Shown here piece by piece: positions 1-59,081 of a stretch of DNA of 59,081 bases; position 1 is the stretch's first letter; each line of letters begins with the position of its first letter. The translations under genes were made by a program, and so were the position numbers. This stretch comes from a virus. The notes below the pieces were generated by a model. It was not told the origin of the DNA, ran no database searches, and saw only the letters and a program-made list of their open reading frames with translations. The DNA is taken from IMG/VR virus record IMGVR_UViG_3300029497_000003; one strand, written 5' to 3'.

Positions 1-99
1 CTGTGCCATTATCCATAAATCCTAATTGCCTTGCTTCAAGAATTTTCGGTTCTTGATTGCCACCTTGCATTGTACTCAATGTCGGACTACACCCCCCCC
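1..99. repeat. Terminal direct repeat identical to 58983-59081 (assembly overlap; circular or circularly permuted genome of 58,982 bp)
   Basis: Read directly: the window starts ctgtgccattatccataaatcc... and the same 99 nt close it. The overlap ends inside a poly-C run. Confidence 0.95.
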
Positions 100-100
100 C
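92..100 (-). repeat. Homopolymer C9 (G9 on the coding strand) inside the methyltransferase gene
   Basis: Sequence gactac-a-ccccccccc-acatc. Frame changes across it: ...RIYDVGGG before, CSPTLSTMQGGNQ after. Confidence 0.95.
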
Positions 101-214
101 ACATCATAAATTCTGTTGGTACTCTCAAATTTTGCTTCAAGAGAGCCTATTACATTTACATCTGCCATAATTACTCCTAAATCGTGTTTTTCAGCTTTTA
201 CACACCGGGAAATA

Positions 215-221
215 CCCCCCC
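215..221 (-). repeat. Homopolymer C7 (G7 on the coding strand) inside the methyltransferase gene
   Basis: Sequence aaata-ccccccc-gataatg. The sensible reading frame differs on its two sides. Confidence 0.9.
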
Positions 222-362
222 GATAATGCCTTTTTGAAATCTGTCTGAAACTTCTGTATATATGCTTCCTAATACTTCCATTCAATTACTCCATTCATAG
301 ATTGATTCCCAAAACCTTTATAATCCCTCGCCATAAGAGTTGTTGCAATATCAATTTGCTTT

Positions 363-1289
363 TCAATCTGCGTTGCTTGATTGCTTAACAACAAGGTTTC
401 CGTCTGACCGCAAGTTTGATATTCCACAGTCGTATCTTGCTTTGATACAGTTTGCAACTTCTCTCTGTTGTGGCTTATCGATTGTTCCGTCAACGCAAGT
501 CTGCTCTGCTCTGCTCTGCTCTGCTCTGCTAGGGATTGTATCTGGTAATGTGCCATTGTCAATTAGCGTCTGAATAAGCTTTTGAGCCTTTTCATTGTTG
601 ATGTAATACTTTTCATCTACATTATCCTCAAGATAGTCTTTCAACTTCTTTTTGAGTGGTATAGGCTGTGAAAAATGGTAATTGTACTCACCCAGGAATG
701 AAAACATAAAACATCTTTCACGATTTTGTGCTACACCGTAATTTTTAGCATTTAAGTCTTGATAGTAATTTGTGTAACCTAGGCTTTCAAGGAAATCTAG
801 CCACTTTCTAAAGTCGGGCATATTATCCCGACTATGTACCTGTGGCACATTCTCCATAAACAATATCTGCGGTAATTCTCCGTTGCTATCTCTGATTTCT
901 GTTAGTATTCTCTCAACTTCCCACAGTAGACCGCTTCTTGTACCACTACCCTTAGACATTCCGGCTTGTTTTCCGGCAACTGATAAATCCGTACAAGGGA
1001 ATGAGTAAGTAAGTAAGTAAGTGAATGTATTTGTGTCACAGATACTCAAATCTTCTGCATGGACTTTTGTTATATCCATTGTAGGAAAATCTGTACCATG
1101 TACTGCGTTATAGCTTGCAATAGCGTACTTATCAAACTCCACAACTCTGTAATGTTCAAATTTTGCACCTATCCGTTTTAGTGCCATTGCCTGACTTCCG
1201 TAGCCTGCGAACAGCTCTATCAATCGGATAGGCTTTGTAATGCTAATAGGTTCTCTTATGTAGTCGAATAAATTTAATTGTTCTTCCAT
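363..1289 (-). CDS. DNA (cytosine-5)-methyltransferase, 5' segment (motifs I-VIII) of a frame-disrupted gene
   Basis: LFAGYGS (motif I), SFPCTDLS (IV), MENVPQV (VI), QNRERCFMFS (VIII). Motifs IX-X are only in ORF 58549-59061, across the circular junction. Confidence 0.85.
   Translation of the reverse strand: MEEQLNLFDYIREPISITKPIRLIELFAGYGSQAMALKRIGAKFEHYRVVEFDKYAIASYNAVHGTDFPTMDITKVHAEDLSICDTNTFTYLLTYSFPCTDLSVAGKQAGMSKGSGTRSGLLWEVERILTEIRDSNGELPQILFMENVPQVHSRDNMPDFRKWLDFLESLGYTNYYQDLNAKNYGVAQNRERCFMFSFLGEYNYHFSQPIPLKKKLKDYLEDNVDEKYYINNEKAQKLIQTLIDNGTLPDTIPSRAEQSRAEQTCVDGTIDKPQQREVANCIKARYDCGISNLRSDGNLVVKQSSNAD
501..530 (-). repeat. Pentanucleotide tandem repeat (CTGCT)x6, = (AGCAG)x6 on the coding strand
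   Basis: ctgctctgctctgctctgctctgctctgct read directly. Encodes SRAEQSRAEQ inside the methyltransferase ORF. Confidence 0.95.
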
Positions 1290-4337: not shown

Positions 4338-5066
4338 CTAAAACGGACACTCACTAGGATTTTTCAAATCCCAACTTTTCCCAGCTTCCGCAACGTCCAC
4401 ATTCGCCCCATAAGCAACTTTTTTCATCTTCTCGATAAAACTATCTCTATCAGAATTTTCACTTGATAGATGGCACATTATGACGTTCTGCAAGATATCT
4501 GAATCGTTAGCTCTAACAAAATCACAAGCGGTATCAATGCTTAAGTGACCTCTGAATACGTGATTAGCTTTGCCTGTATCCCTGTCGATTAAATCCTTGT
4601 CATAATTCACACCTAAGAGAATGTGGTTTATGTCTTTAAACTTCCATTTGATTAATTCACAATCGGTTATGTAAAGCATTCTCCCCATTTCCTTGTGAGT
4701 AATCAGAAAGCCAAATATCGGGCAAGGTTCGCCATTTGCGTCTGTATGTGTCCACCTACCATCTACTGTTGTTAGGTCAAACGCTCTTACAGTAAAATAA
4801 GAATTTGCTAGAAACTGATTCATAAGTAAGGCTTTGTATGGCTCACATATAGGAATACCCATAGTTTCAAAATCTTTTACTGACTTGCTGTGGTCAAGGT
4901 GTTTATGGGTGCATAACACACCCACAATACCTTTAATGTTCCAATCTAAGCCTTTTTTAATCTCCTTAATCGGTATTCCGCAATCAAGGATAAGTGTTTC
5001 TCCGTTGTCTGCCTGCACCAGATAGCAATTTCCTGCTGATGATGAGCCTAAGCAAGTTAATTTCAT
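4338..5066 (-). CDS. MBL-fold metallo-hydrolase (probable recombination-associated nuclease)
   Basis: LGSSSAGNCYLV...LILDCG...THKHLDHS beta-lactamase-fold motifs, next to RecT. Confidence 0.75.
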   Translation of the reverse strand: MKLTCLGSSSAGNCYLVQADNGETLILDCGIPIKEIKKGLDWNIKGIVGVLCTHKHLDHSKSVKDFETMGIPICEPYKALLMNQFLANSYFTVRAFDLTTVDGRWTHTDANGEPCPIFGFLITHKEMGRMLYITDCELIKWKFKDINHILLGVNYDKDLIDRDTGKANHVFRGHLSIDTACDFVRANDSDILQNVIMCHLSSENSDRDSFIEKMKKVAYGANVDVAEAGKSWDLKNPSECPF

Positions 5067-21347: not shown

Positions 21348-23540
21348 TTAAATGTTAAATGCTGGCTGTCCTGTCATATTAGTATAGTTATTAGCTTTAT
21401 CCTGCACCATTGTAAACAATTTATCAGCATCACCTTGTAATGTTATGTTTACATTGTTGTTAGCTTCTGACATAGCCGCTACAACCGCATTGTAAACCGC
21501 CGGATAAACTGCATTAGCAATACCTGTTGTAATTTCTTGTTGATTGGCTACCGCTGTTCTTCCGTCCATAGTACCAACCATTTCGGGCATAACTTCATTT
21601 GCAACGAATAACTGTCCTTTTCTTGGAAAACCACCATTTGCATAAAAATCAACATTAATATGAGGCACTTCTGGAGGCATAAGATTAAATTCGCCCTCAA
21701 TGCTAAAATGTGGCATTTTAATATGAGGAAATCTAAGCGACAAGTCACTCCACCAGTCCTCTAGGTTATGCCATAATTCTCGTATATAACTAAAGAAATC
21801 TTCTATTGCAACTGATATTCTGTGAAGTTCTGGCTTGCTGTCCCACCAATCAAGTACGCTATACCATTCATTTTTAAGCCCTTGCATTATTCCGCTTGCC
21901 ATATCGTTCCATCTGTCTGCTGTAAAGTAAGGCGCTACGTGGTTATTCCACCAATTACCTATAGCTGTTCCGCCCCACCAATTAGAAAAGCTATTCCAAC
22001 TGTTAGATAAGCTATCCTTAATATTTTCACCTAAGTTGCCCCATCTTTCTTTAGTAAAATATGGCAAGACATTATCATTCCACCAATTATATATTCCTGT
22101 GCCGCTCCACCAATTATTGAACGAAGTCCAACTATCAGTTAAGCTACCTTTTGCGTTATCTCCAAGAGATTGCCATTTTGCTTTTGTAAAATAAGGTGCT
22201 ACGCTATTGTTCCACCATCCTACGATAGCTGTATTGCCCCACCAATTAGAAAAACTATTCCAAGCATTGCTTAATGAGGTTTTAGCATTGTCGCCTAATT
22301 CTCCCCATTTTGCCTTAGTAAACCAAGGTGCAACACTTGTAGTCCACCAATTTGCTATATCATCTTTGTGTCCGAATGTGATTGTTTCTATCACTCCGTC
22401 AATAAAGCTAGGTAAATCTTCAAATGGTGCTTTTATAAGATATGCTAATTGGTCGAACATTGACATATCTATTTTCTCGCCTGTTAATTTTTCATTGAGC
22501 CAATTGCCTAAATTAAATCCAGCAATAGCAGCTACTATTCCACCTACTATTCCAGCACCTATAGTTAAGCCTATTTCTGTTGCTGTTCCTGCTCCTATAA
22601 TAGTGCCTATATCTGTTGTAAGTAATCCACCTATTCCTGATATTATACTGCCTGTTCCGAATGATTTTAAAGCACCTTTAATACTTGTTCCTATTACTGT
22701 AACAAGTTTCTTTTTCAAAACACTTCCTAAGCCTGTAAATTTCAATGCCGCTATAGCTGTTATTAAGGTCGTTTCAATTGGTGCTGCCGTAAATGAACCA
22801 CTCCATAATTCGATAGCTGCTTTAATGGCTTGCCATAACACATTACCAAGGCTTGAAAATATTTCAAGCCAATTAAGTCCATCTAAATACTCTCCTATAT
22901 CATGTCCAATTGTATACCAAGGAACATCATCTATAGCCTTTGCAAACCAATTAAAAATTCCTGCCACAAGGTTAGATGTATCTTGACCTGCCTTAAAGAA
23001 GTCACCAACTGCAAAATCTTTAAAAATCTGTTTAACAGGTTCAAGTGCTTTTTCTATTCTGTCAGCCCAAGCAACTGCCGAATTTTCCATATTGGCAAAT
23101 GCTTTATTCCAAGCTGCTTCATAATCAGCCGCCGCCTTAGCAATATCGTCTGTCAAATCAATAGTGCTACCACCGCCGCCACCGCCACTTGAACCCTTGC
23201 TTGAGCTTGTATCGTCCTGCAATTTATTTATTTCATCAAATCCCATAAGGGATAATGTAGCTTTCTTCGCTGAGTCAGCTACATCTTGGTAGCCATCTGA
23301 AATATCTTCTAAGCCGTCTGATGTGTCTTTATAGCCACTTTGTCCGAAGCTCTCAAAGTCAATCTTAACGCCCATTAAAGAAGCAAGACCAACTAATAAT
23401 CTTTTGATTGCAATAGTTACTCCGTTTACTATTGGCATAACCTTTGAAAGAATTGGGATAAATAGCTGTCCTGCTACCATTCCTACCTCTTTCATATTGT
23501 TACTGAACTGACGTAACATATTACTTGGGGAGTTGATTGT
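21348..23540 (-). CDS. tail tape measure protein, 3' exon
   Basis: Begins TINSPSNMLRQFSNNMKEVG with no RBS upstream. Gly-rich TM-like core; four W-rich roughly 44-aa repeats. Confidence 0.75.
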   Translation of the reverse strand, partial: TINSPSNMLRQFSNNMKEVGMVAGQLFIPILSKVMPIVNGVTIAIKRLLVGLASLMGVKIDFESFGQSGYKDTSDGLEDISDGYQDVADSAKKATLSLMGFDEINKLQDDTSSSKGSSGGGGGGSTIDLTDDIAKAAADYEAAWNKAFANMENSAVAWADRIEKALEPVKQIFKDFAVGDFFKAGQDTSNLVAGIFNWFAKAIDDVPWYTIGHDIGEYLDGLNWLEIFSSLGNVLWQAIKAAIELWSGSFTAAPIETTLITAIAALKFTGLGSVLKKKLVTVIGTSIKGALKSFGTGSIISGIGGLLTTDIGTIIGAGTATEIGLTIGAGIVGGIVAAIAGFNLGNWLNEKLTGEKIDMSMFDQLAYLIKAPFEDLPSFIDGVIETITFGHKDDIANWWTTSVAPWFTKAKWGELGDNAKTSLSNAWNSFSNWWGNTAIVGWWNNSVAPYFTKAKWQSLGDNAKGSLTDSWTSFNNWWSGTGIYNWWNDNVLPYFTKERWGNLGENIKDSLSNSWNSFSNWWGGTAIGNWWNNHVAPYFTADRWNDMASGIMQGLKNEWYSVLDWWDSKPELHRISVAIEDFFSYIRELWHNLEDWWSDLSLRFPHIKMPHFSIEGEFNLMPPEVPHINVDFYANGGFPRKGQLFVANEVMPEMVGTMDGRTAVANQQEITTGIANAVYPAVYNAVVAAMSEANNNVNITLQGDADKLFTMVQDKANNYTNMTGQPAFNI

Positions 23541-23880
23541 CAAATTTGTTATCGTATAGGCTCTTTATCCTATACTTCTTATAGTTTCCTATAAGTTCAG
23601 AGTACATTATCACCCACGTTTTTACGTTTGGTTTGGTGGTAGCCACTTCCACCTCATACTGCCCTATATGCAGTAGTGTCGGACACTCTTGGGAATATTA
23701 TATTTATTCAATTCCTACTCGTTACAATACTTAATAGCCTGTTCGTAATCTATTAAGTTATCTCGGTATTGGCATAGCTTATAGCCTTAGCCTTCACCGA
23801 TTTTGCCCGATTGTCATAAGATGTTTCCATTCTTATGCAACACTTGGAAGATAAGTTATGTCATTAACTTTCTTCCGTCT
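23541..23880 (-). ncRNA. putative self-splicing group I-like intron interrupting the tape measure gene
   Basis: 340 nt with stops in all frames. Upstream exon ends in U, insert ends in G. At least 9 stable hairpins, including cuuauag-GAAA-cuauaag. Confidence 0.6.
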
Positions 23881-25152
23881 ATTAGCTAAATCACCCCAAG
23901 ATACTTTACTTTGGTCTAATATTGCCAACACTCTTAATTGCTGTTTTTCCATCTGTGTCATTTCTGATACAGACTTTGATATCCCTAAGTTGTAAGCATA
24001 TGTCGCTAATGTAGCATTAGTAATATCAATACCATACTTATACAATGCCCTTGATTGACCGATTAAGCCGCTTTGCAAGTTCTGTGCTACCGTTGAATAG
24101 TCCACATTAAAAAGTGAGCTTATATCGCCTGCAAGCATTGTCATTGACTTTGTTATAGCCGTTGTTGCTTCGCCTGTCTGCCCTAATGAGTTAGTGACAG
24201 AAGCTAACTGCGAAGCGTACTGCGTTATCTCTTGTATGTTAAGTCCTAAGTTCTTTGCTCCGCTTTCTTCAAGCAAGCCGCCTTGAACATTAACTTTTAA
24301 GCCAGATAACTTTCCGAGAGTATCATTTACTCTACTTTGAAAACTTTCTGCATATGCTGTTGCGTTATCATATCCGTACTTTTCATAGTCTTTATCCCAT
24401 TCTGAACCAATCTTACCAAACGCAACCGCTTGATAGTTGAACGCTTCAATGTAATCTGTTGTTGACTTGATGGCTTCTATAAGTTTCTTACTGCCACGAA
24501 TTACCATAAAATAAGTGGCATAAAACTTACCTATCGCACTTGCTAAGTTCCAACTGCTTTTAGTTGCTGTCCTAGCACTTGTAGAAACGCCATACAGCGA
24601 CTTTTGAAGTGAGTTTGAAGAAGTACCCACCTTGCTACCTTGACTAGCAAGATTAGCCAATGCGTTAGTCATTTGAATGACATTTTGACTTACTGTTGGC
24701 GCTCTTGATAGCGTTGTCATTAAGCCATTTAAAGCATTACCTAGCTTTGGAATGTTTACAACGGCGTTTTCTATGCTCTTACTGCCTAGCTTGCCAAGTG
24801 ACTTTGCAAATTCTGTGACCTGTGTTGCATTTTGCGGAATAGCTGATATGCTTGCAACTGCCTTTGTGACAGCTTGAAGTGATGTAGCTGTGCTAGTTAG
24901 TGCAACCGAATCAACAGAACCTATCTTTGTGATGTTCTTAGCAAGTCTTGTAAAATCTGTTGTCTTTACATCCATTCCTTTCATAGCAATACTAAGTTGT
25001 CCTAAAGAACTTGAAAAGCTGGATAAGGAAGTTCCGTTAATATTAGCTAATGAACTCGCTAATTTTTGTAGCGATGTTATTAAACTTTCTACAGAATCTA
25101 TAGCCGTTTTAGATGTGCCTTTAATTTTGACTTCTAAACTGTCTAATTCCAC
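23881..25152 (-). CDS. tail tape measure protein, 5' exon
   Basis: GTG start after a GGGGGGG RBS. Helical A/S/T-rich. Ends ...QSKVSWGDLAN, which joins TINSPSNMLR to recreate the conserved GD(F/L)A.T..S..N..R motif. Confidence 0.75.
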
Positions 25153-25166
25153 GCTTTAACCCCCCC

Positions 25167-25463
25167 TTATAGGATTGTTGGCGGTAGTCCTCTCTTTTCA
25201 GTCTGTGCCGCCCATTTTTGCTCATTGAGTAACATCAGCTGTAACTCTTTGTCGTATGTATTTTCTTTACTTTCTTCTGTTTTTTCTGATAAAATAGCCT
25301 GTTTAGGATATTCAATGTGTGCATCTTTATTAAATGCCGCACCTATTCCGCAAGAAATAGCTGGAATTGCGTAAACTAAAAACCAGTTATACATTTCTGA
25401 ATCGCGATTTTGTCTATCAATCTTTTTGCCTTTTGCGTATAGTAATAATTTTTTAGGTGTCAT
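25167..25463 (-). CDS. tail assembly chaperone, frameshift extension (T part of G/GT)
   Basis: The -1 frame stays open from inside the 3' end of ORF 25526-26014 through this ORF. Confidence 0.55.
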   Translation of the reverse strand: MTPKKLLLYAKGKKIDRQNRDSEMYNWFLVYAIPAISCGIGAAFNKDAHIEYPKQAILSEKTEESKENTYDKELQLMLLNEQKWAAQTEKRGLPPTIL

Positions 25464-42829: not shown

Positions 42830-43300
42830 TACACCTAATTAGCTTAAATGTATAGATGTTAATTAGATTATTTTTAATTAAATATATAAGTGATTTATTA
42901 GTATTAATTATATGATTATGTGTTATTTATATATAATTATATAATATGTGTATTATGTGGGTAATAATAATATAAATATATATTAATATATAAAGCCTTT
43001 TTCTTATCGTGGAAAAATGAGTGACTTAGTTGGGGCGTGTTCCGAGGACAAATAAACCCCCTCCGCCCTTGTCCGTGTAATTGTGTCTATTTTATGCCAT
43101 ATTCTCAAACAATTAACACAATTAACACCATATCCATACTATAACGCCGATAAACCTTAATTTATCAGCGTTATCTAAATGCTTAGCACTCACAAACCCA
43201 GTATTTAAGCGGTTTTCAAGTGGTTTAAATTGTGTCTGAATTGTTTATGGCGTTTATCTGCTGTTTATCCGTTAATTGTGTATCATTTTGGTTTAATTGC
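42830..43300. promoter_or_regulatory. extremely AT-rich tract plus a cluster of AATTGTKT repeats at and downstream of the terS 3' end (candidate pac/TerS-binding or regulatory region)
   Basis: taattgtgt at 43078, 43228 and 43273, variants at 43239 and 43293, inverted copies at 43107-43124. 42830-43010 is almost pure A/T. Confidence 0.4.
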
Positions 43301-47084: not shown

Positions 47085-48756
47085 CAGACTGTAGACAAAG
47101 TGGCACTAGGATACAAAGCTTAGTGCCACTTGTCTCTGAATTTTAAATAATTTTATACCTTTTAATATTTTATGTTGTTTTTTACATATATTATGTGGAT
47201 AATCTCCACTTACCTCCCTGTATTTTTCTAACATCCTTGCTAATTTTTTAAGATTCATGCATGCAAAAGTAAGCCCTGCTTTCATTTCCATACGGGCTTT
47301 TCCTATCATCTGTGTATATCTAAATCCATGATTCTCTTTGGCTGTTCCAAAAAGTCTCTCTATCGTTTCTTTTCTGTGAGAATAAAGTTCCTTCATTCCT
47401 ATTGATAATCTTATATCTTCACACTTTTCTATATAATCTTCCCAGATATGTCTTGTTACCAACTTTACATGATTTTTGCTTTCGGTACATTGACTTATAT
47501 ATGGGCAGTTACTGCATGTTTCCGAACAGCTCTTATATTCTTTATACCCATCACGATTAGTTGTTGAATATTTAAGAACTGCGTTGTTAGGACATATATA
47601 ACAATCAAAGTATTCATCATAAACATACTCATATTTCTTAAAGAATCCTTGTTTTGTCATTGGTCTCTTATATGGAAGAAGTGGCTGAATACCATCATCT
47701 ATCAATAGCTTTGCAATTGCAGGAGTTTTATATCCTGCATCCGCTACAAGTGTTTTTATTCCTATATCTTTTATCTTATTATACAAACTTATAAAGGTTC
47801 TGCTATCATGCATATTTCCAGGATTAACTGAGTAACCAAGAATCCAGCCAAACTTATCACATGCAGTTTCAATTGAATATGCGAATACATGCTTATGTTC
47901 ACCTTTCCGGAACCATCCGCTTTCTGGATCGGTTGTGCTGCACTTAATAGTTTTCTCATCTTTCGGAACATCTGTCGTAAAGTCTTTCATTCCTCCGCCA
48001 GAAGATGACTTATCATTATCTTTATCTGAATCCTTCAAAGGCTTCTTTCCATGAGCCTCTCTGTCAGAATTTATTTCTTTTTTTAAGAGTTCTTCATAAA
48101 ACAAAGCTTGTTCATGAGCAATCTTTGCTCTCATTTTTTTACTGTTAGCACATGCTTTCACATGAGTTGCATCAACAAACACTTCTGTTGGATCAACAAA
48201 TTTATACTTATAACATTCTGATAAGATATGAGAAAAGATTTGTTCAAACAAGTCTGTATCCTTAAATCTACGAGTGTAGTTTTTACCAAATGTAGAAAAG
48301 TGGGGAACAGAATCATTCATTTCCAATCCCAAAAACCAACGGTAAGCAACATTAACTTCTATTTCTTTCATAGTCTGCCGCATACTTTTAATTCCATAAA
48401 GATACTGAATAAAAGGAATCTTTATAAGCATTACTGGATCCATACTAGGTCGTCCAAAATCAGGAGAATACTTATCCTGAACAAGGTCATAAATAAAGTT
48501 CCAATCTATTGCTTTATCAATCACTCTTAAAAGATGATCTTTTGGCACTAAATCATCCATACAGAACATCTGAATCTGTTCTCTTTTTTTATCTGCATTG
48601 ACTGTCATCATAAAACACTCACCACCTGATTTTTGATATAATAATTATATCAAAAAAGTGCTACAAAGTAAGTATTTATCTGCATTTGTCACATTTTAAT
48701 TAATCCTGAAATAAGAAAAATCCGAGACTTTCGCCTCGGACTTTGTCTACAGTCTG
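47085..48756 (-). mobile_element. IS1182-family insertion sequence
   Basis: 17-bp terminal inverted repeats cagactgtagacaaagt (47085-47101 and 48740-48756) around one transposase gene. Confidence 0.8.
47106..48611 (-). CDS. IS1182-family DDE transposase
   Basis: LVPKDHLLRVIDKAIDWNFIYDLV...GRPSMDPVMLIKI...MRQTMKEIEVNVAYRWFLG. Confidence 0.8.
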   Translation of the reverse strand: MMTVNADKKREQIQMFCMDDLVPKDHLLRVIDKAIDWNFIYDLVQDKYSPDFGRPSMDPVMLIKIPFIQYLYGIKSMRQTMKEIEVNVAYRWFLGLEMNDSVPHFSTFGKNYTRRFKDTDLFEQIFSHILSECYKYKFVDPTEVFVDATHVKACANSKKMRAKIAHEQALFYEELLKKEINSDREAHGKKPLKDSDKDNDKSSSGGGMKDFTTDVPKDEKTIKCSTTDPESGWFRKGEHKHVFAYSIETACDKFGWILGYSVNPGNMHDSRTFISLYNKIKDIGIKTLVADAGYKTPAIAKLLIDDGIQPLLPYKRPMTKQGFFKKYEYVYDEYFDCYICPNNAVLKYSTTNRDGYKEYKSCSETCSNCPYISQCTESKNHVKLVTRHIWEDYIEKCEDIRLSIGMKELYSHRKETIERLFGTAKENHGFRYTQMIGKARMEMKAGLTFACMNLKKLARMLEKYREVSGDYPHNICKKQHKILKGIKLFKIQRQVALSFVS

Positions 48757-57497: not shown

Positions 57498-58319
57498 TTA
57501 TATATTATCCCAGTCAATAGCACCCTTACTAAAATTCTGATTGCCTTGCTTTTCGGAAACGACATTCTGATTAAGGTAACTCTCAAACTTCGTGCCAAAC
57601 AGGGTATCTGGTCTTAAATATCTTTCCCTTTCAGTTCCAAGCCATTCATTAACTTTTTTATCTATGACTGTGTAAAAATCCCGTTCAGTATATCCCTCTT
57701 TGATTCTTGCCCCGATATGCTTTTTAGTATTAGGCGTATTGTATCTATATCTGGTATTACATCTGTTATTTAAGTAACTAATAATATTTATATATATATT
57801 ATTATCTATATTATCTTTCTTTTTATTTACTATATTATTATTAACAGAAACAGAATCAGAAACAGAATCAGAATCAGTATCAGAAACAGATGTCTCCATA
57901 GGGTATGTATACCCTATGTATAGGGTATCGTTTTTAATGGAATCAACCATATCATTAACATATTTTCTAAATTCGTCAGATTTAATATGTTTGGCAACTC
58001 CTAAAACCCCTGCCAAGACTTTCTCTGATTTGCTCCAGTTATACTTATACCAATGTAATATCAGCACTTCTTTGGTTTCTGAATCAAACTTAATAACCTT
58101 ATGTACCTTGTCAAACCTTTCTAATAGTCTGATAATAGTATCTTTGTTATAACCTGTCTGCCTTGTCATTTGCGAATAACTAACCTCGTAACACCCACAT
58201 ATATTTGTCTGTGGATTTGTTAGCAAATATATGTAGAAATACTTGTCCTCTGGCGTAAAATCATCTTCAACCTTGTTATCGGTCCAAAATGATAATTGAA
58301 CATTTCTATATATTGCCAT
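57498..58319 (-). CDS. phage replisome organizer (N-terminal initiator domain plus conserved phage C-terminus)
   Basis: IYRNVQLSFWTDNKV...YFYIYLLTNP and YLNNRCNTRYRYNT...IGARIKEGYTERDF...YLRPDTLFGTKFESYLNQ. Confidence 0.8.
   Translation of the reverse strand: MAIYRNVQLSFWTDNKVEDDFTPEDKYFYIYLLTNPQTNICGCYEVSYSQMTRQTGYNKDTIIRLLERFDKVHKVIKFDSETKEVLILHWYKYNWSKSEKVLAGVLGVAKHIKSDEFRKYVNDMVDSIKNDTLYIGYTYPMETSVSDTDSDSVSDSVSVNNNIVNKKKDNIDNNIYINIISYLNNRCNTRYRYNTPNTKKHIGARIKEGYTERDFYTVIDKKVNEWLGTERERYLRPDTLFGTKFESYLNQNVVSEKQGNQNFSKGAIDWDNI
57778..57895. promoter_or_regulatory. candidate origin of replication inside the organizer gene
   Basis: About 65 bp of nearly pure A/T, followed by cagaaacagaat x2, cagaat, cagtat, cagaaacaga. 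Confidence 0.5.
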
Positions 58320-58548: not shown

Positions 58549-59061
58549 TTAATCTCCTTGCTTGATATTCAAATTCTTAAACATAGCACACATAACATCT
58601 ACAACTATGCTGTTACCAAATTGCTTGTATAACTGCGTGTTGCTGTTTACTGCTGCCATTTTGGATATATCCTCGTCTGATACTCCCATCAGACGTCCGC
58701 ATTCTCTCGGTGTTAGTTTTCTAATCCTATATTGTGGCTCAATCACAAGGTTATCTTTCTGCACACTCGTCAAGCAATTACTTGTGCCTTGCATATTTAC
58801 CTCCAATCTCTGTTCTGTTGGGCTTCCCACAGTTCTATCTGACGGATTATCAGGATTTCTACCGCGCATAGCAACTATCTGACTTTCACACACTTTAATC
58901 TGTTGTGTACCGCCACCCTCAACTGTTGTAATGTTGGGGCAAAGTGCATTTTCATCATATACTGTGTTTGATTGGTGCTTGCCTGTGCCATTATCCATAA
59001 ATCCTAATTGCCTTGCTTCAAGAATTTTCGGTTCTTGATTGCCACCTTGCATTGTACTCAA
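58549..59061 (-). CDS. DNA (cytosine-5)-methyltransferase, 3' segment (TRD modules plus motifs IX-X)
   Basis: CPNITTVEGGGTQQ, AMRGRNPDNP...QRLE...SNCLTSVQKDN, RKLTPRECGRLMG (IX), GNSIVVDV (X). Frame stays open upstream to the poly-G tract: CSPTLSTMQGG. Confidence 0.85.
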   Translation of the reverse strand: MSTMQGGNQEPKILEARQLGFMDNGTGKHQSNTVYDENALCPNITTVEGGGTQQIKVCESQIVAMRGRNPDNPSDRTVGSPTEQRLEVNMQGTSNCLTSVQKDNLVIEPQYRIRKLTPRECGRLMGVSDEDISKMAAVNSNTQLYKQFGNSIVVDVMCAMFKNLNIKQGD

Positions 59062-59081
59062 TGTCGGACTACACCCCCCCC
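58983..59081. repeat. second copy of the terminal overlap (= 1-99)
   Basis: Identical by inspection. Confidence 0.95.

Follow-up and report, generated by a model that had tools for sequence, protein, structure and literature searches.

The cytosine-C5 DNA methyltransferases (C5-MTases) of the Bacillus phages SPR, phi3T, rho11s and H2 combine one catalytic core with several contiguous target-recognition modules lying between motifs VIII and IX, and these SPR/phi3T-type enzymes are single polypeptides without simple-sequence tracts. In hsdS of the Neisseria gonorrhoeae NgoAV system, as well as in Helicobacter pylori, a homopolymer frameshift in the specificity subunit changes the recognition domain that is attached. 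The locus described here, a C5-MTase locus on the minus strand of the IMG/VR virus record IMGVR_UViG_3300029497_000003 (59,081 nucleotides (nt); “the window” hereafter, meaning the whole stretch of DNA that was analysed), bears a likeness to both. As in the SPR type, with which it was matched by description, it is phage-borne and has tandem recognition-like modules whose number varies between relatives, whereas it is not a single polypeptide, being split into two open reading frames (ORFs) in nearly all of the loci. The proposed behaviour of its pentanucleotide simple sequence repeat (SSR1) resembles that of NgoAV hsdS, in that specificity, and not only the on/off state, might be changed; NgoAV, however, concerns a bacterial Type I S subunit, whereas here it is the catalytic subunit of a phage C5-MTase that has two recognition-like tails, the frames of which overlap.

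A division into two subunits is known from M.AquI, the larger subunit of which contains motifs I–VIII and a part of the variable region, and the smaller one the rest together with motifs IX–X (PMC3404938). The motifs of the present locus are divided between its two ORFs, alpha and beta, in the same manner as in M.AquI and M.EcoHK31I, with beta having its own Shine-Dalgarno (SD) sequence; unlike in M.AquI, beta carries several tandem recognition modules, and the alpha/beta junction is coupled to a repeat-controlled choice of frame. Bacterial methyltransferases that are phase-variable by means of SSRs have been described (PMC7383803, PMC4889913), and the window shares with Type III mod, Type I hsdM/hsdS and the Campylobacter Type IIG cj0031 poly-G the tetra-/pentanucleotide repeats or poly-G within methyltransferase coding sequence, the shifting of frames with the units, and lengths that vary between near-identical genomes. 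Those systems are chromosomal N6-adenine enzymes of Types I, III and IIG, whereas the present one is an orphan-type C5 enzyme (PF00145) situated in a phage replication module, with three independent tracts in one locus, one of which, placed in a linker midway along the gene, chooses between alternative C-termini that overlap. Being neither the mod of a chromosomal Type III system nor the hsdM of a Type I one, and being described here by its sequence, it is not classed as a phasevarion, i.e., a regulon controlled by a methylase.

The closest experimental precedent for hypermutable repeats in a phage DNA-modification gene is the poly-A contingency locus agt of phage T2, where frameshifts generate subpopulations, with TgvAB and McrA/BC exerting opposing selection (Gomez, Barrick & Waters, bioRxiv 10.1101/2025.10.21.683753); the same preprint notes, but does not study, a poly-G in the methylase gene of Bordetella phage BPP-1 (bioRxiv 10.1101/2025.10.21.683753). 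Both T2 agt and the receptor-binding-protein poly-G of Fletchervirus are single homopolymers that act as on/off switches in lytic coliphages or Campylobacter phages, whereas in the case at hand a temperate gut phage family combines a microsatellite and poly-G within a split multi-module C5-MTase, at >100 loci, with two tails in overlapping frames. A search for a phage-borne SSR-variable C5-MTase found no direct precedent within the collection of literature that was searched, and no close cultured relatives were found in the GenBank phage collection, where the best match was Dulem virus 39 (70% over half of the query). We regard it as likely that the window encodes a functional two-subunit, multi-module C5-MTase of a temperate tailed phage of gut Clostridia, in which three slippage-hypermutable tracts would serve as contingency switches.

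Architecture of the split methyltransferase and its tracts

The first and last 99 nt of the window (1–99 and 58983–59081) are identical, as is to be seen in a k-mer-sized overlap of a circular assembly, and the contig is therefore a 58,982-bp circle with the methyltransferase gene crossing the junction. The first-pass annotation had already suspected a k-mer overlap, a reasonable idea that gains in precision from the fact that the overlap stops within one of the tracts (G9), which suggests that the assembly graph branched there. Alpha, a 308-amino-acid (aa) entry of the ORF list (363–1289, minus strand), contains motifs I (LFAGYGSQ), IV (SFPCTDLS), VI (ENVPQV) and VIII (QNRER), followed by a repeat-encoded linker and tail A, which reads TCVDG...CIKARYDCGISNLRSDGNLVVKQSSNAD up to the stop codon. 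It matches Pfam PF00145 with E=9e-48 (residues 22–253 on profile positions 2–227), and in a Protein Data Bank (PDB) comparison it aligns to M.HhaI residues 12–212 and to M.MpeI.

Beta begins at a start element at 279–292 (minus strand), consisting of the SD sequence GGAG (289–292), a 7-nt spacer and an ATG (279–281), all embedded in NGVIEW codons. As written, the beta ORF (198–281, minus strand) reads MEVLGSIYTEVSDRFQKGIIGGVFPGV and a stop, being truncated after 27 aa by the G7 of the first poly-G tract (poly-G1), while with G8 at that site it runs on through ...GGGISRCVKAEKHDLGV..., as it does in L081, L053 and L139. The middle segment (76–214, minus strand) comprises the remainder of module 1 and the first part of module 2 (GISRCVKAEKHDLGVIMADVNVIGSLEAKFESTNRIYDVGGG) and ends with VVRH and a stop at 76–78 owing to the G9 of the second poly-G tract (poly-G2), and the C-terminal segment (58549–59073, minus strand) leads from CSPTLSTMQGG through module 3 (ALCPNITTVEGGG) and module 4 (GTSNCLTSVQKDN) to motif IX (RKLTPRECG, 58696–58722), motif X (FGNSIVVDV, 58594–58620) and the stop at 58549–58551, with positions 58983–59073 duplicating 1–91 and beta thus crossing the contig junction. 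The C-terminus of beta covers profile positions 260–322 of PF00145 (E=2e-10) and aligns to motifs IX–X of M.HhaI and of 3lx6 in the PDB comparison, so that across alpha and beta motifs I, IV, VI, VIII, IX and X of a C5-MTase (PF00145) are all present and in order.

The first-pass annotation had placed the tracts inside one methyltransferase gene; a methyltransferase it is, but the locus consists of two ORFs and not of a single gene. At the beta start, GGAGT(A/G)ATTGAATG is found in 60/63 loci, the junction at which GVIEWK and a stop meet MEV is conserved, and the first ORF ends after about 260–345 aa in nearly all related loci. The same alpha-stop/beta-start junction is seen in tract-free relatives of ~60% identity (L085 and L101), e.g., in L085, located on a 1.67-Mb contig, alpha ends with ...GNGVVEW... 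and a stop, and an overlapping beta starts with M..IIGS.Y. Because the junction and the beta GGAG are kept to such an extent, and because the tract-free relatives share the two-ORF structure, a conserved two-subunit C5-MTase is indicated, and one broken gene with three frameshifts can be ruled out on the same grounds. A single-chain enzyme was encountered only in L015, L097 and a few others. Beta itself is modular, its repaired length ranging from 131 to 383 aa with constant ends and with recognition modules inserted or missing among relatives. By sequence pattern only, several tandem recognition-like modules lie between motifs VIII and IX, at least six of them in the window: CIKARYDCGIS of tail A, TLMARDYKG of the alternative tail B, ISRCVKAEKHD, RIYDVGGGCSPTLSTMQGG, TVYDENALCPNITTVEGGG and GTSNCLTSVQKDN.

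The three tracts at issue read (AGCAG)6, G7 and G9 on the coding strand because the gene lies on the minus strand, and both a listing of runs and Tandem Repeats Finder (TRF) place them where the first-pass annotation had reported them. SSR1 (500–530, minus strand; coding (AGCAG)6.2, plus-strand (CTGCT)6 at 501–530; TRF period 5, 6.2 copies, 100% match) encodes the linker SRAEQSRAEQ after the alpha catalytic domain. Poly-G1 (215–221, minus strand; G7, plus-strand C7) and poly-G2 (92–100, minus strand; G9, plus-strand C9) provide codons for Gly-Gly(-Gly) directly 5′ of the motifs of beta module 1 (...KGIIGGG-ISRCVKAEKHD) and module 2 (...RIYDVGGG-CSPTLSTMQGG), respectively, and a poly-G is also present at the equivalent site of a third module type (..LRGG-ICPTL) in relatives. 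Both are out of phase in the window, poly-G1 being in phase at G5, G8 and G11, and poly-G2 at G7 and G10. The earlier claim that at G9 the frame stops four codons after GGG (VVRH and a stop), and that G10 or G7 gives NRIYDVGG(G)CSPTLSTMQGGNQEPK and continues to motifs IX (RKLTPRECG) and X (FGNSIVV), was reproduced. As for the G7, a change of one G in either direction had been thought to join frames, which is true of +1 (G8; also of −2, G5), whereby the beta ORF MEVLGSIYTEVSDRFQKGIIG is joined, but not of −1; the latter was ruled out as a productive state, as the frame so joined lacks a start and is not open until past the tail-B stop.

There are four G/C runs of at least 6 nt in the window, and its two best perfect microsatellites are both inside this gene. 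When compared to 300 first-order Markov genomes, the number of G/C runs of at least 7 nt (3 observed versus a mean of 0.68 per genome), the presence of a run of at least 9 nt (P = 0.027) and that of two runs of at least 7 nt within 1.95 kb (P = 0.007) stand out, and a perfect 4–5-mer with at least five copies occurred in none of the 300; the clustering of tracts exceeds chance. GGG is the rarest Gly codon of this phage (8%).

Two further repeats were considered and rejected as tracts of this kind. The (AGTA)4.8 (plus-strand sense) found by TRF at 1004–1022 within the minus-strand gene encodes FTYLLTY, directly ahead of the catalytic PC motif; close relatives have this period-4 run at a length of 19 or 21 nt, others lack it, no locus is frameshifted there, and it reads as a fixed coding repeat. 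It had been missed by the first-pass annotation, together with the two-ORF structure, the end of the overlap in G9 and a frame change that sits at no tract (see below). The other is a G7 (coding strand) at 25160–25166, the only further G/C run of 7 in the window. It falls not within an ORF but between two of them, the first of 98 aa with its stop at 25167 and the second being the tape-measure ORF, which starts with GTG at 25152; it thus lies in the ribosome-binding region of the latter (AAGGGGGGGTTAAAGCGTG), where changes in its length would alter the SD spacing.

Tract variation and the choice of alpha C-termini

With the N-terminal ORF as query, 403 related stretches were obtained from IMG/VR, 80 of them being kept, and 25 more came from species-representative genomes. 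Contigs of the same strain, recognised by their exact matching of alpha and of a 200-aa protein encoded next to it, were compared over 2,600 nt spanning the locus. Six same-strain contigs, the window included, show 0–1 substitutions in these 2,600 nt and otherwise differ only at the three tracts, among which five combinations are found: six SSR1 units, G7 at poly-G1 and G9 at poly-G2 in the window and L141 (alpha of 308 aa with tail A); six units, G8 and G8 in L139 (also 308 aa with tail A); five units, G7 and G9 in L140 (264 aa, no tail); four units, G9 and G8 in L142 (336 aa, tail B); and nine units, G7 and G8 in L143 (313 aa, tail A). All three phases of SSR1 are therefore present within the window's own strain. 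Other closely related pairs behave likewise: L011 and L077 have 0 mismatches in 2,150 nt, with 9 versus 8 units and G9 versus G7, L020 and L071 have 1 mismatch, with 3 versus 7 units, and L078 and L079 have 2 mismatches, with 15 versus 9 units. The lengths of these tracts thus mutate far faster than substitutions accumulate, among near-identical genomes, and all three of them, (AGCAG)6, G7 and G9, lie inside ORFs whose frame they alter, as is characteristic of contingency loci.

Across >100 related phage loci, the tracts occupy the same sites while the units and copy numbers differ. At the position of SSR1, (AGCAG)3-11, (GACA)3-19, (AGAGC)3-15, octamers, a heptamer and (AACAG)11 are found, and the poly-G tracts range from G5 to G10 across the family. 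With the exact flanks of the window, the poly-G1 alleles are G5 (four times), G6 (three times), G7 (twice), AG7 and G9, and those of poly-G2 are G6, G7 (five times), G8 (five times) and G9 in addition to ten interrupted variants, eight of which have the in-phase length of 7 nt (GGTGGGG five times, GATGGGG twice, GTGGGGG; GGGGAGG also occurs among the interrupted variants), the other two being 8 and 9 nt long. That relatives might all share the same broken frames, which would have pointed to a plain pseudogene, was looked at, and they were found to carry differing lengths at the same positions. Contigs also tend to end within the tracts: the window (with its 99-nt overlap), L010 and L042 inside poly-G2, and L051, L082, L096 and three Logan contigs inside SSR1. 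A contig break in a homopolymer of 7–9 nt is most simply explained by a branch of the assembly graph, which would imply mixed lengths among the reads. Distant relatives with 55–66% alpha identity (L089, which is Treponema-binned, L091, L093, L094 and L096), coming from other host bins and from animals (sheep colon, roe deer omasum), have tracts at equivalent sites, namely (AACAG)11 with G9 and G9, G8/G9/G7, (GACA)19, and, where one contig ends, a heptamer (AGAGAAC)n, so that the design with tracts must predate this phage family and extend beyond it.

Translation bears out the claim that the pentamer tract of the window is in frame with the downstream ...CIKARYDCGISN..., as well as the expectation that the gain or loss of one unit shifts the frame, although the outcome is a set of three alpha C-termini and not a simple on/off. 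Six or nine units lead to tail A, seven or four to tail B, and five or eight to a stop after about 2 codons; in the window, one more unit would give tail B, and one fewer the short form. Tail B, in the alternative +1 frame after SSR1 (269–499, minus strand), reads LALTEQ...IDIATTLMARDYKGFGNQSMNGVIEWKY and a stop, overlaps tail A over ~45 codons, and has its stop (269–271) overlapping the beta start region. The median open length after SSR1, taken over 78 loci, is 45 codons in frame A (TCVDG...CIKARYDCGISNLRSDGN...), 76 in frame B, which ends with ...TLMARDYKGFGNQSMNGVIEWKY and a stop, and 2 in frame C. At least 74 codons of frame B are free of stops in 75/78 loci, and synonymous resampling of the window's tail A gave P = 0.010 for the +1 frame staying open. 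The region coding in B only varies at B-frame third positions (6/30 versus 0 and 1 in one length class and 20/26 versus 7 and 7 in the other), so that module B appears to be protein-coding under selection, even though most consensus genomes do not have it in frame with alpha, and the overlap region is most variable at A-frame third positions, from which it follows that tail A is constrained too.

In consensus genomes SSR1 is in phase A in 62 loci (73%), gives no tail in 11 and is in phase B in 8, and the copy numbers in phase A step by three units. One frame change, from A to B and back, sits at no tract and is built in through the overlapping coding frames. A programmed +1 frameshift from tail A to tail B was considered and found to be unlikely, the tail A stop lying 132, 144, 138 or 123 nt after CVDG depending on the lineage, with no conserved slippery site; it is also disfavoured because some genomes (L142, L057, L083 and others) read alpha directly into frame B through SSR1 length alone. 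SSR1 is, by the pattern of its reading frames, a three-way selector of alpha C-termini, with two recognition-like modules placed in overlapping frames and each conserved in its own frame. In L033 and L039, frame B after SSR1 continues uninterrupted through all the modules to motif X (384 and 307 codons, respectively), and a one-unit change of SSR1 would therefore yield a single-chain full-length methyltransferase in these two.

The mechanism that we envisage is that slipped-strand mispairing during replication would change the tract lengths and give rise to mixed populations, in which SSR1 length would set the alpha C-terminus (tail A, tail B or none), and an out-of-phase poly-G would truncate beta upstream of motifs IX–X, which should abolish activity. 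As alpha is in phase A while neither poly-G tract leaves beta in phase, the consensus genome of the window is probably methylase-off. We infer that switching is frequent and reversible within a population and that it would alter methylation, in the sense of an on/off predicted from the frames and possibly in specificity, such that the phage population probably reshuffles whether and how DNA is methylated. The benefit might be bet-hedging between hosts with restriction that is blocked by 5-methylcytosine (5mC) and hosts or lysogens harmed by 5mC, whether because of methyl-dependent restriction or because methylation of the host chromosome is costly. A more far-reaching version, which we put forward tentatively and with more doubt than belief, is a combinatorial generator of specificities, where SSR1 would attach one of two modules or none, and each poly-G would remove the upstream beta modules, with translation restarting at the SD-plus-Met of module junctions; were this so, replication slippage would suffice for one phage genome to produce as many as about a dozen distinct methylation repertoires.

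Coding constraint and competing explanations

Several observations weigh against the contingency-switch interpretation and have to be set beside it. None of the five tract combinations of the window's strain leaves beta on, and the consensus poly-G tracts are in phase in 33/84 cases (39%), close to the 1/3 of neutral drift, with the in-phase and out-of-phase numbers being 8 and 16 for G6, 18 and 7 for G7, 7 and 12 for G8, and 0 and 16 for G9; there is, therefore, no sign of selection for the on state. Four of 78 loci have no solution by poly-G length only, owing to a nonsense codon in L019 and to non-tract frameshifts in L011/L077 and L040, and some copies would thus seem to be decaying. Only ~9% of the consensus genomes have alpha reading into tail B, within-population heterogeneity and reversibility are deduced from between-contig differences and contig break points, and the suggested ecological rationale is by analogy with T2 agt only. 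The near-random phases, the off state of beta throughout the strain and the extra lesions are also what would be expected of a decaying, non-functional methyltransferase, the tracts of which would simply be mutation-prone, with their length differences drifting neutrally. This is, nevertheless, a very improbable account of the locus in our opinion. In the repaired frame, dN/dS of beta is 0.04–0.08 at dS of 0.5–1.7, pairs in which both members are out of phase included, and beta can be read from its ATG to motif X, as it stands or with changes of poly-G length alone, in 74 of the 78 loci (29 as written, 35 with one tract changed and 10 with two); a tally of 70 of 74 loci was also obtained for beta being intact or repairable in this way. 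The openness of frame B in nearly all of the loci with its third-position variation, and the predominance of phase A with its steps of three units, also speak against decay, as does the fact that lineages with as little as ~58% identity hold their tracts at identical codons, even though no Gly codon is used less often than GGG. Given such purifying selection on the coding sequence, which extends to all coding parts, both overlapping tails included, the gene is not a plain pseudogene but one under selection, as a contingency locus should be. The idea of a slipped-strand phase-variable phage methyltransferase, with which the first-pass annotation had started, is thereby supported, as same-strain contigs with an otherwise invariant background differ at the tracts only.

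It could also be argued that the tract lengths are sequencing or assembly errors and that the true genomes all have one in-frame length, considering that homopolymers of 8–10 nt are error-prone, that contig breaks at tracts could be error-induced branches of the graph, and that, for the Logan contigs ending in SSR1, repeat length relative to the assembler k could contribute. Such an explanation strikes us as the least probable of all, as SSR1 differs by whole units, up to six of them (30 nt), between near-identical contigs, poly-G differs by up to 2–3 nt between otherwise identical ones, the differences recur across many independent assemblies made with differing assemblers and k values, and both the interrupted variants and the SSR1 phases are patterned as if under selection. 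Somewhat less improbable, although still unlikely, is that the tracts do vary but that expression is not truly switched, with RNA-polymerase or ribosomal slippage on G7–G10, or internal initiation, leaving the tracts to modulate the amount of the enzyme or its module content. Transcriptional slippage on long homopolymers is well established, the beta middle segment contains an internal ATG (166–168, MADVNVIG) with GGAGTAATT just before it and just after module 1, a Met follows the GV(I/V) motif at every module junction, and gene callers always find a C-terminal ORF of 167–190 aa with motifs IX–X, whatever the state of the tracts. Because of this ATG and of the Met at each junction, pruning of modules instead of full silencing is possible. 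The SD-like sequence before the first in-phase ATG after poly-G2 is weak, however, and leaky expression would leave the dual-coded tails at SSR1 unexplained; it would modify the explanation by contingency switching and not replace it. All things considered, the methyltransferase locus of the window is, as far as can be judged from sequence, a real and well-supported multi-tract contingency locus.

The phage and what switching would mean for it

The window represents a tailed temperate phage, as it encodes a terminase, portal, major head protein, tape measure, tail protein, large serine recombinase/integrase and DnaD-like replisome organizer, and the presence of the same phage in scaffolds of 131 kb and 213 kb, which are longer than the phage genome, is consistent with integration. 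Related contigs from metagenome-assembled genomes carry unverified, binning-based labels of gut Lachnospiraceae, Roseburia, Eubacterium and, for some, Treponema bins. The neighbours of the methylase are a single-stranded DNA-binding protein, a RecT-like protein and the DnaD-like organizer, and no adjacent restriction gene was seen. In-frame hexamer/12-mer repeats, (AACAGA)8 on the plus strand, lie within the gene of this replisome organizer (57781–57890) and encode SVSDTDSDSVSDSVSV; contigs L020 and L081 end in similar-looking TCTGATACTGAT-type sequence, the region being judged homologous by eye.

Elsewhere in the genome, tape-measure matches extend over two ORFs (23833–25152 and 21348–23543) that are ~290 nt apart, and a 21-nt tandem repeat is located at 23290–23337. 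The early region encodes a 242-aa protein with a metallo-beta-lactamase fold (4338–5066, minus strand) having a sub-threshold match to the anti-Pycsar Apyc1 (22.6 bits versus a cut-off of 50), which is replaced by a 174-aa ORF in some contigs of the same family (L139, L142–L145). A 501-aa DDE transposase (47106–48611, minus strand; PF13751, PF05598, PF01609) likely belongs to an insertion sequence carried by the phage, and AT-rich, apparently non-coding tandem repeats with periods of 28, 8 and 10 nt (42895–42992) could mark an origin or attachment-site region. The strands are asymmetric, with 38/40 long ORFs on the minus strand and a plus strand of 37% T versus 27% A and 21% C versus 15% G.

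Phase-variable methyltransferases are a textbook feature of host-adapted bacterial pathogens, and contingency loci of phages were not reported as such until the 2025 preprint cited above, as homopolymers in coliphages. Here, a widespread temperate gut phage family with >400 related IMG/VR contigs retains, in a DNA-modification enzyme, three hypermutable tracts whose positions are fixed; one of these tracts, by choosing between tails in overlapping frames, would be a compact slippage route for varying a recognition domain. If methylation does switch, the epigenetic marks of the phage, and possibly the methylomes of Lachnospiraceae-type lysogens, would be heterogeneous within populations, which would bear on host range, restriction evasion, methyl-dependent defence and the methylation-based linking of phages to hosts in metagenomes, and frameshifted phage methylase genes in metagenome assemblies should then not be dismissed as pseudogenes or errors.

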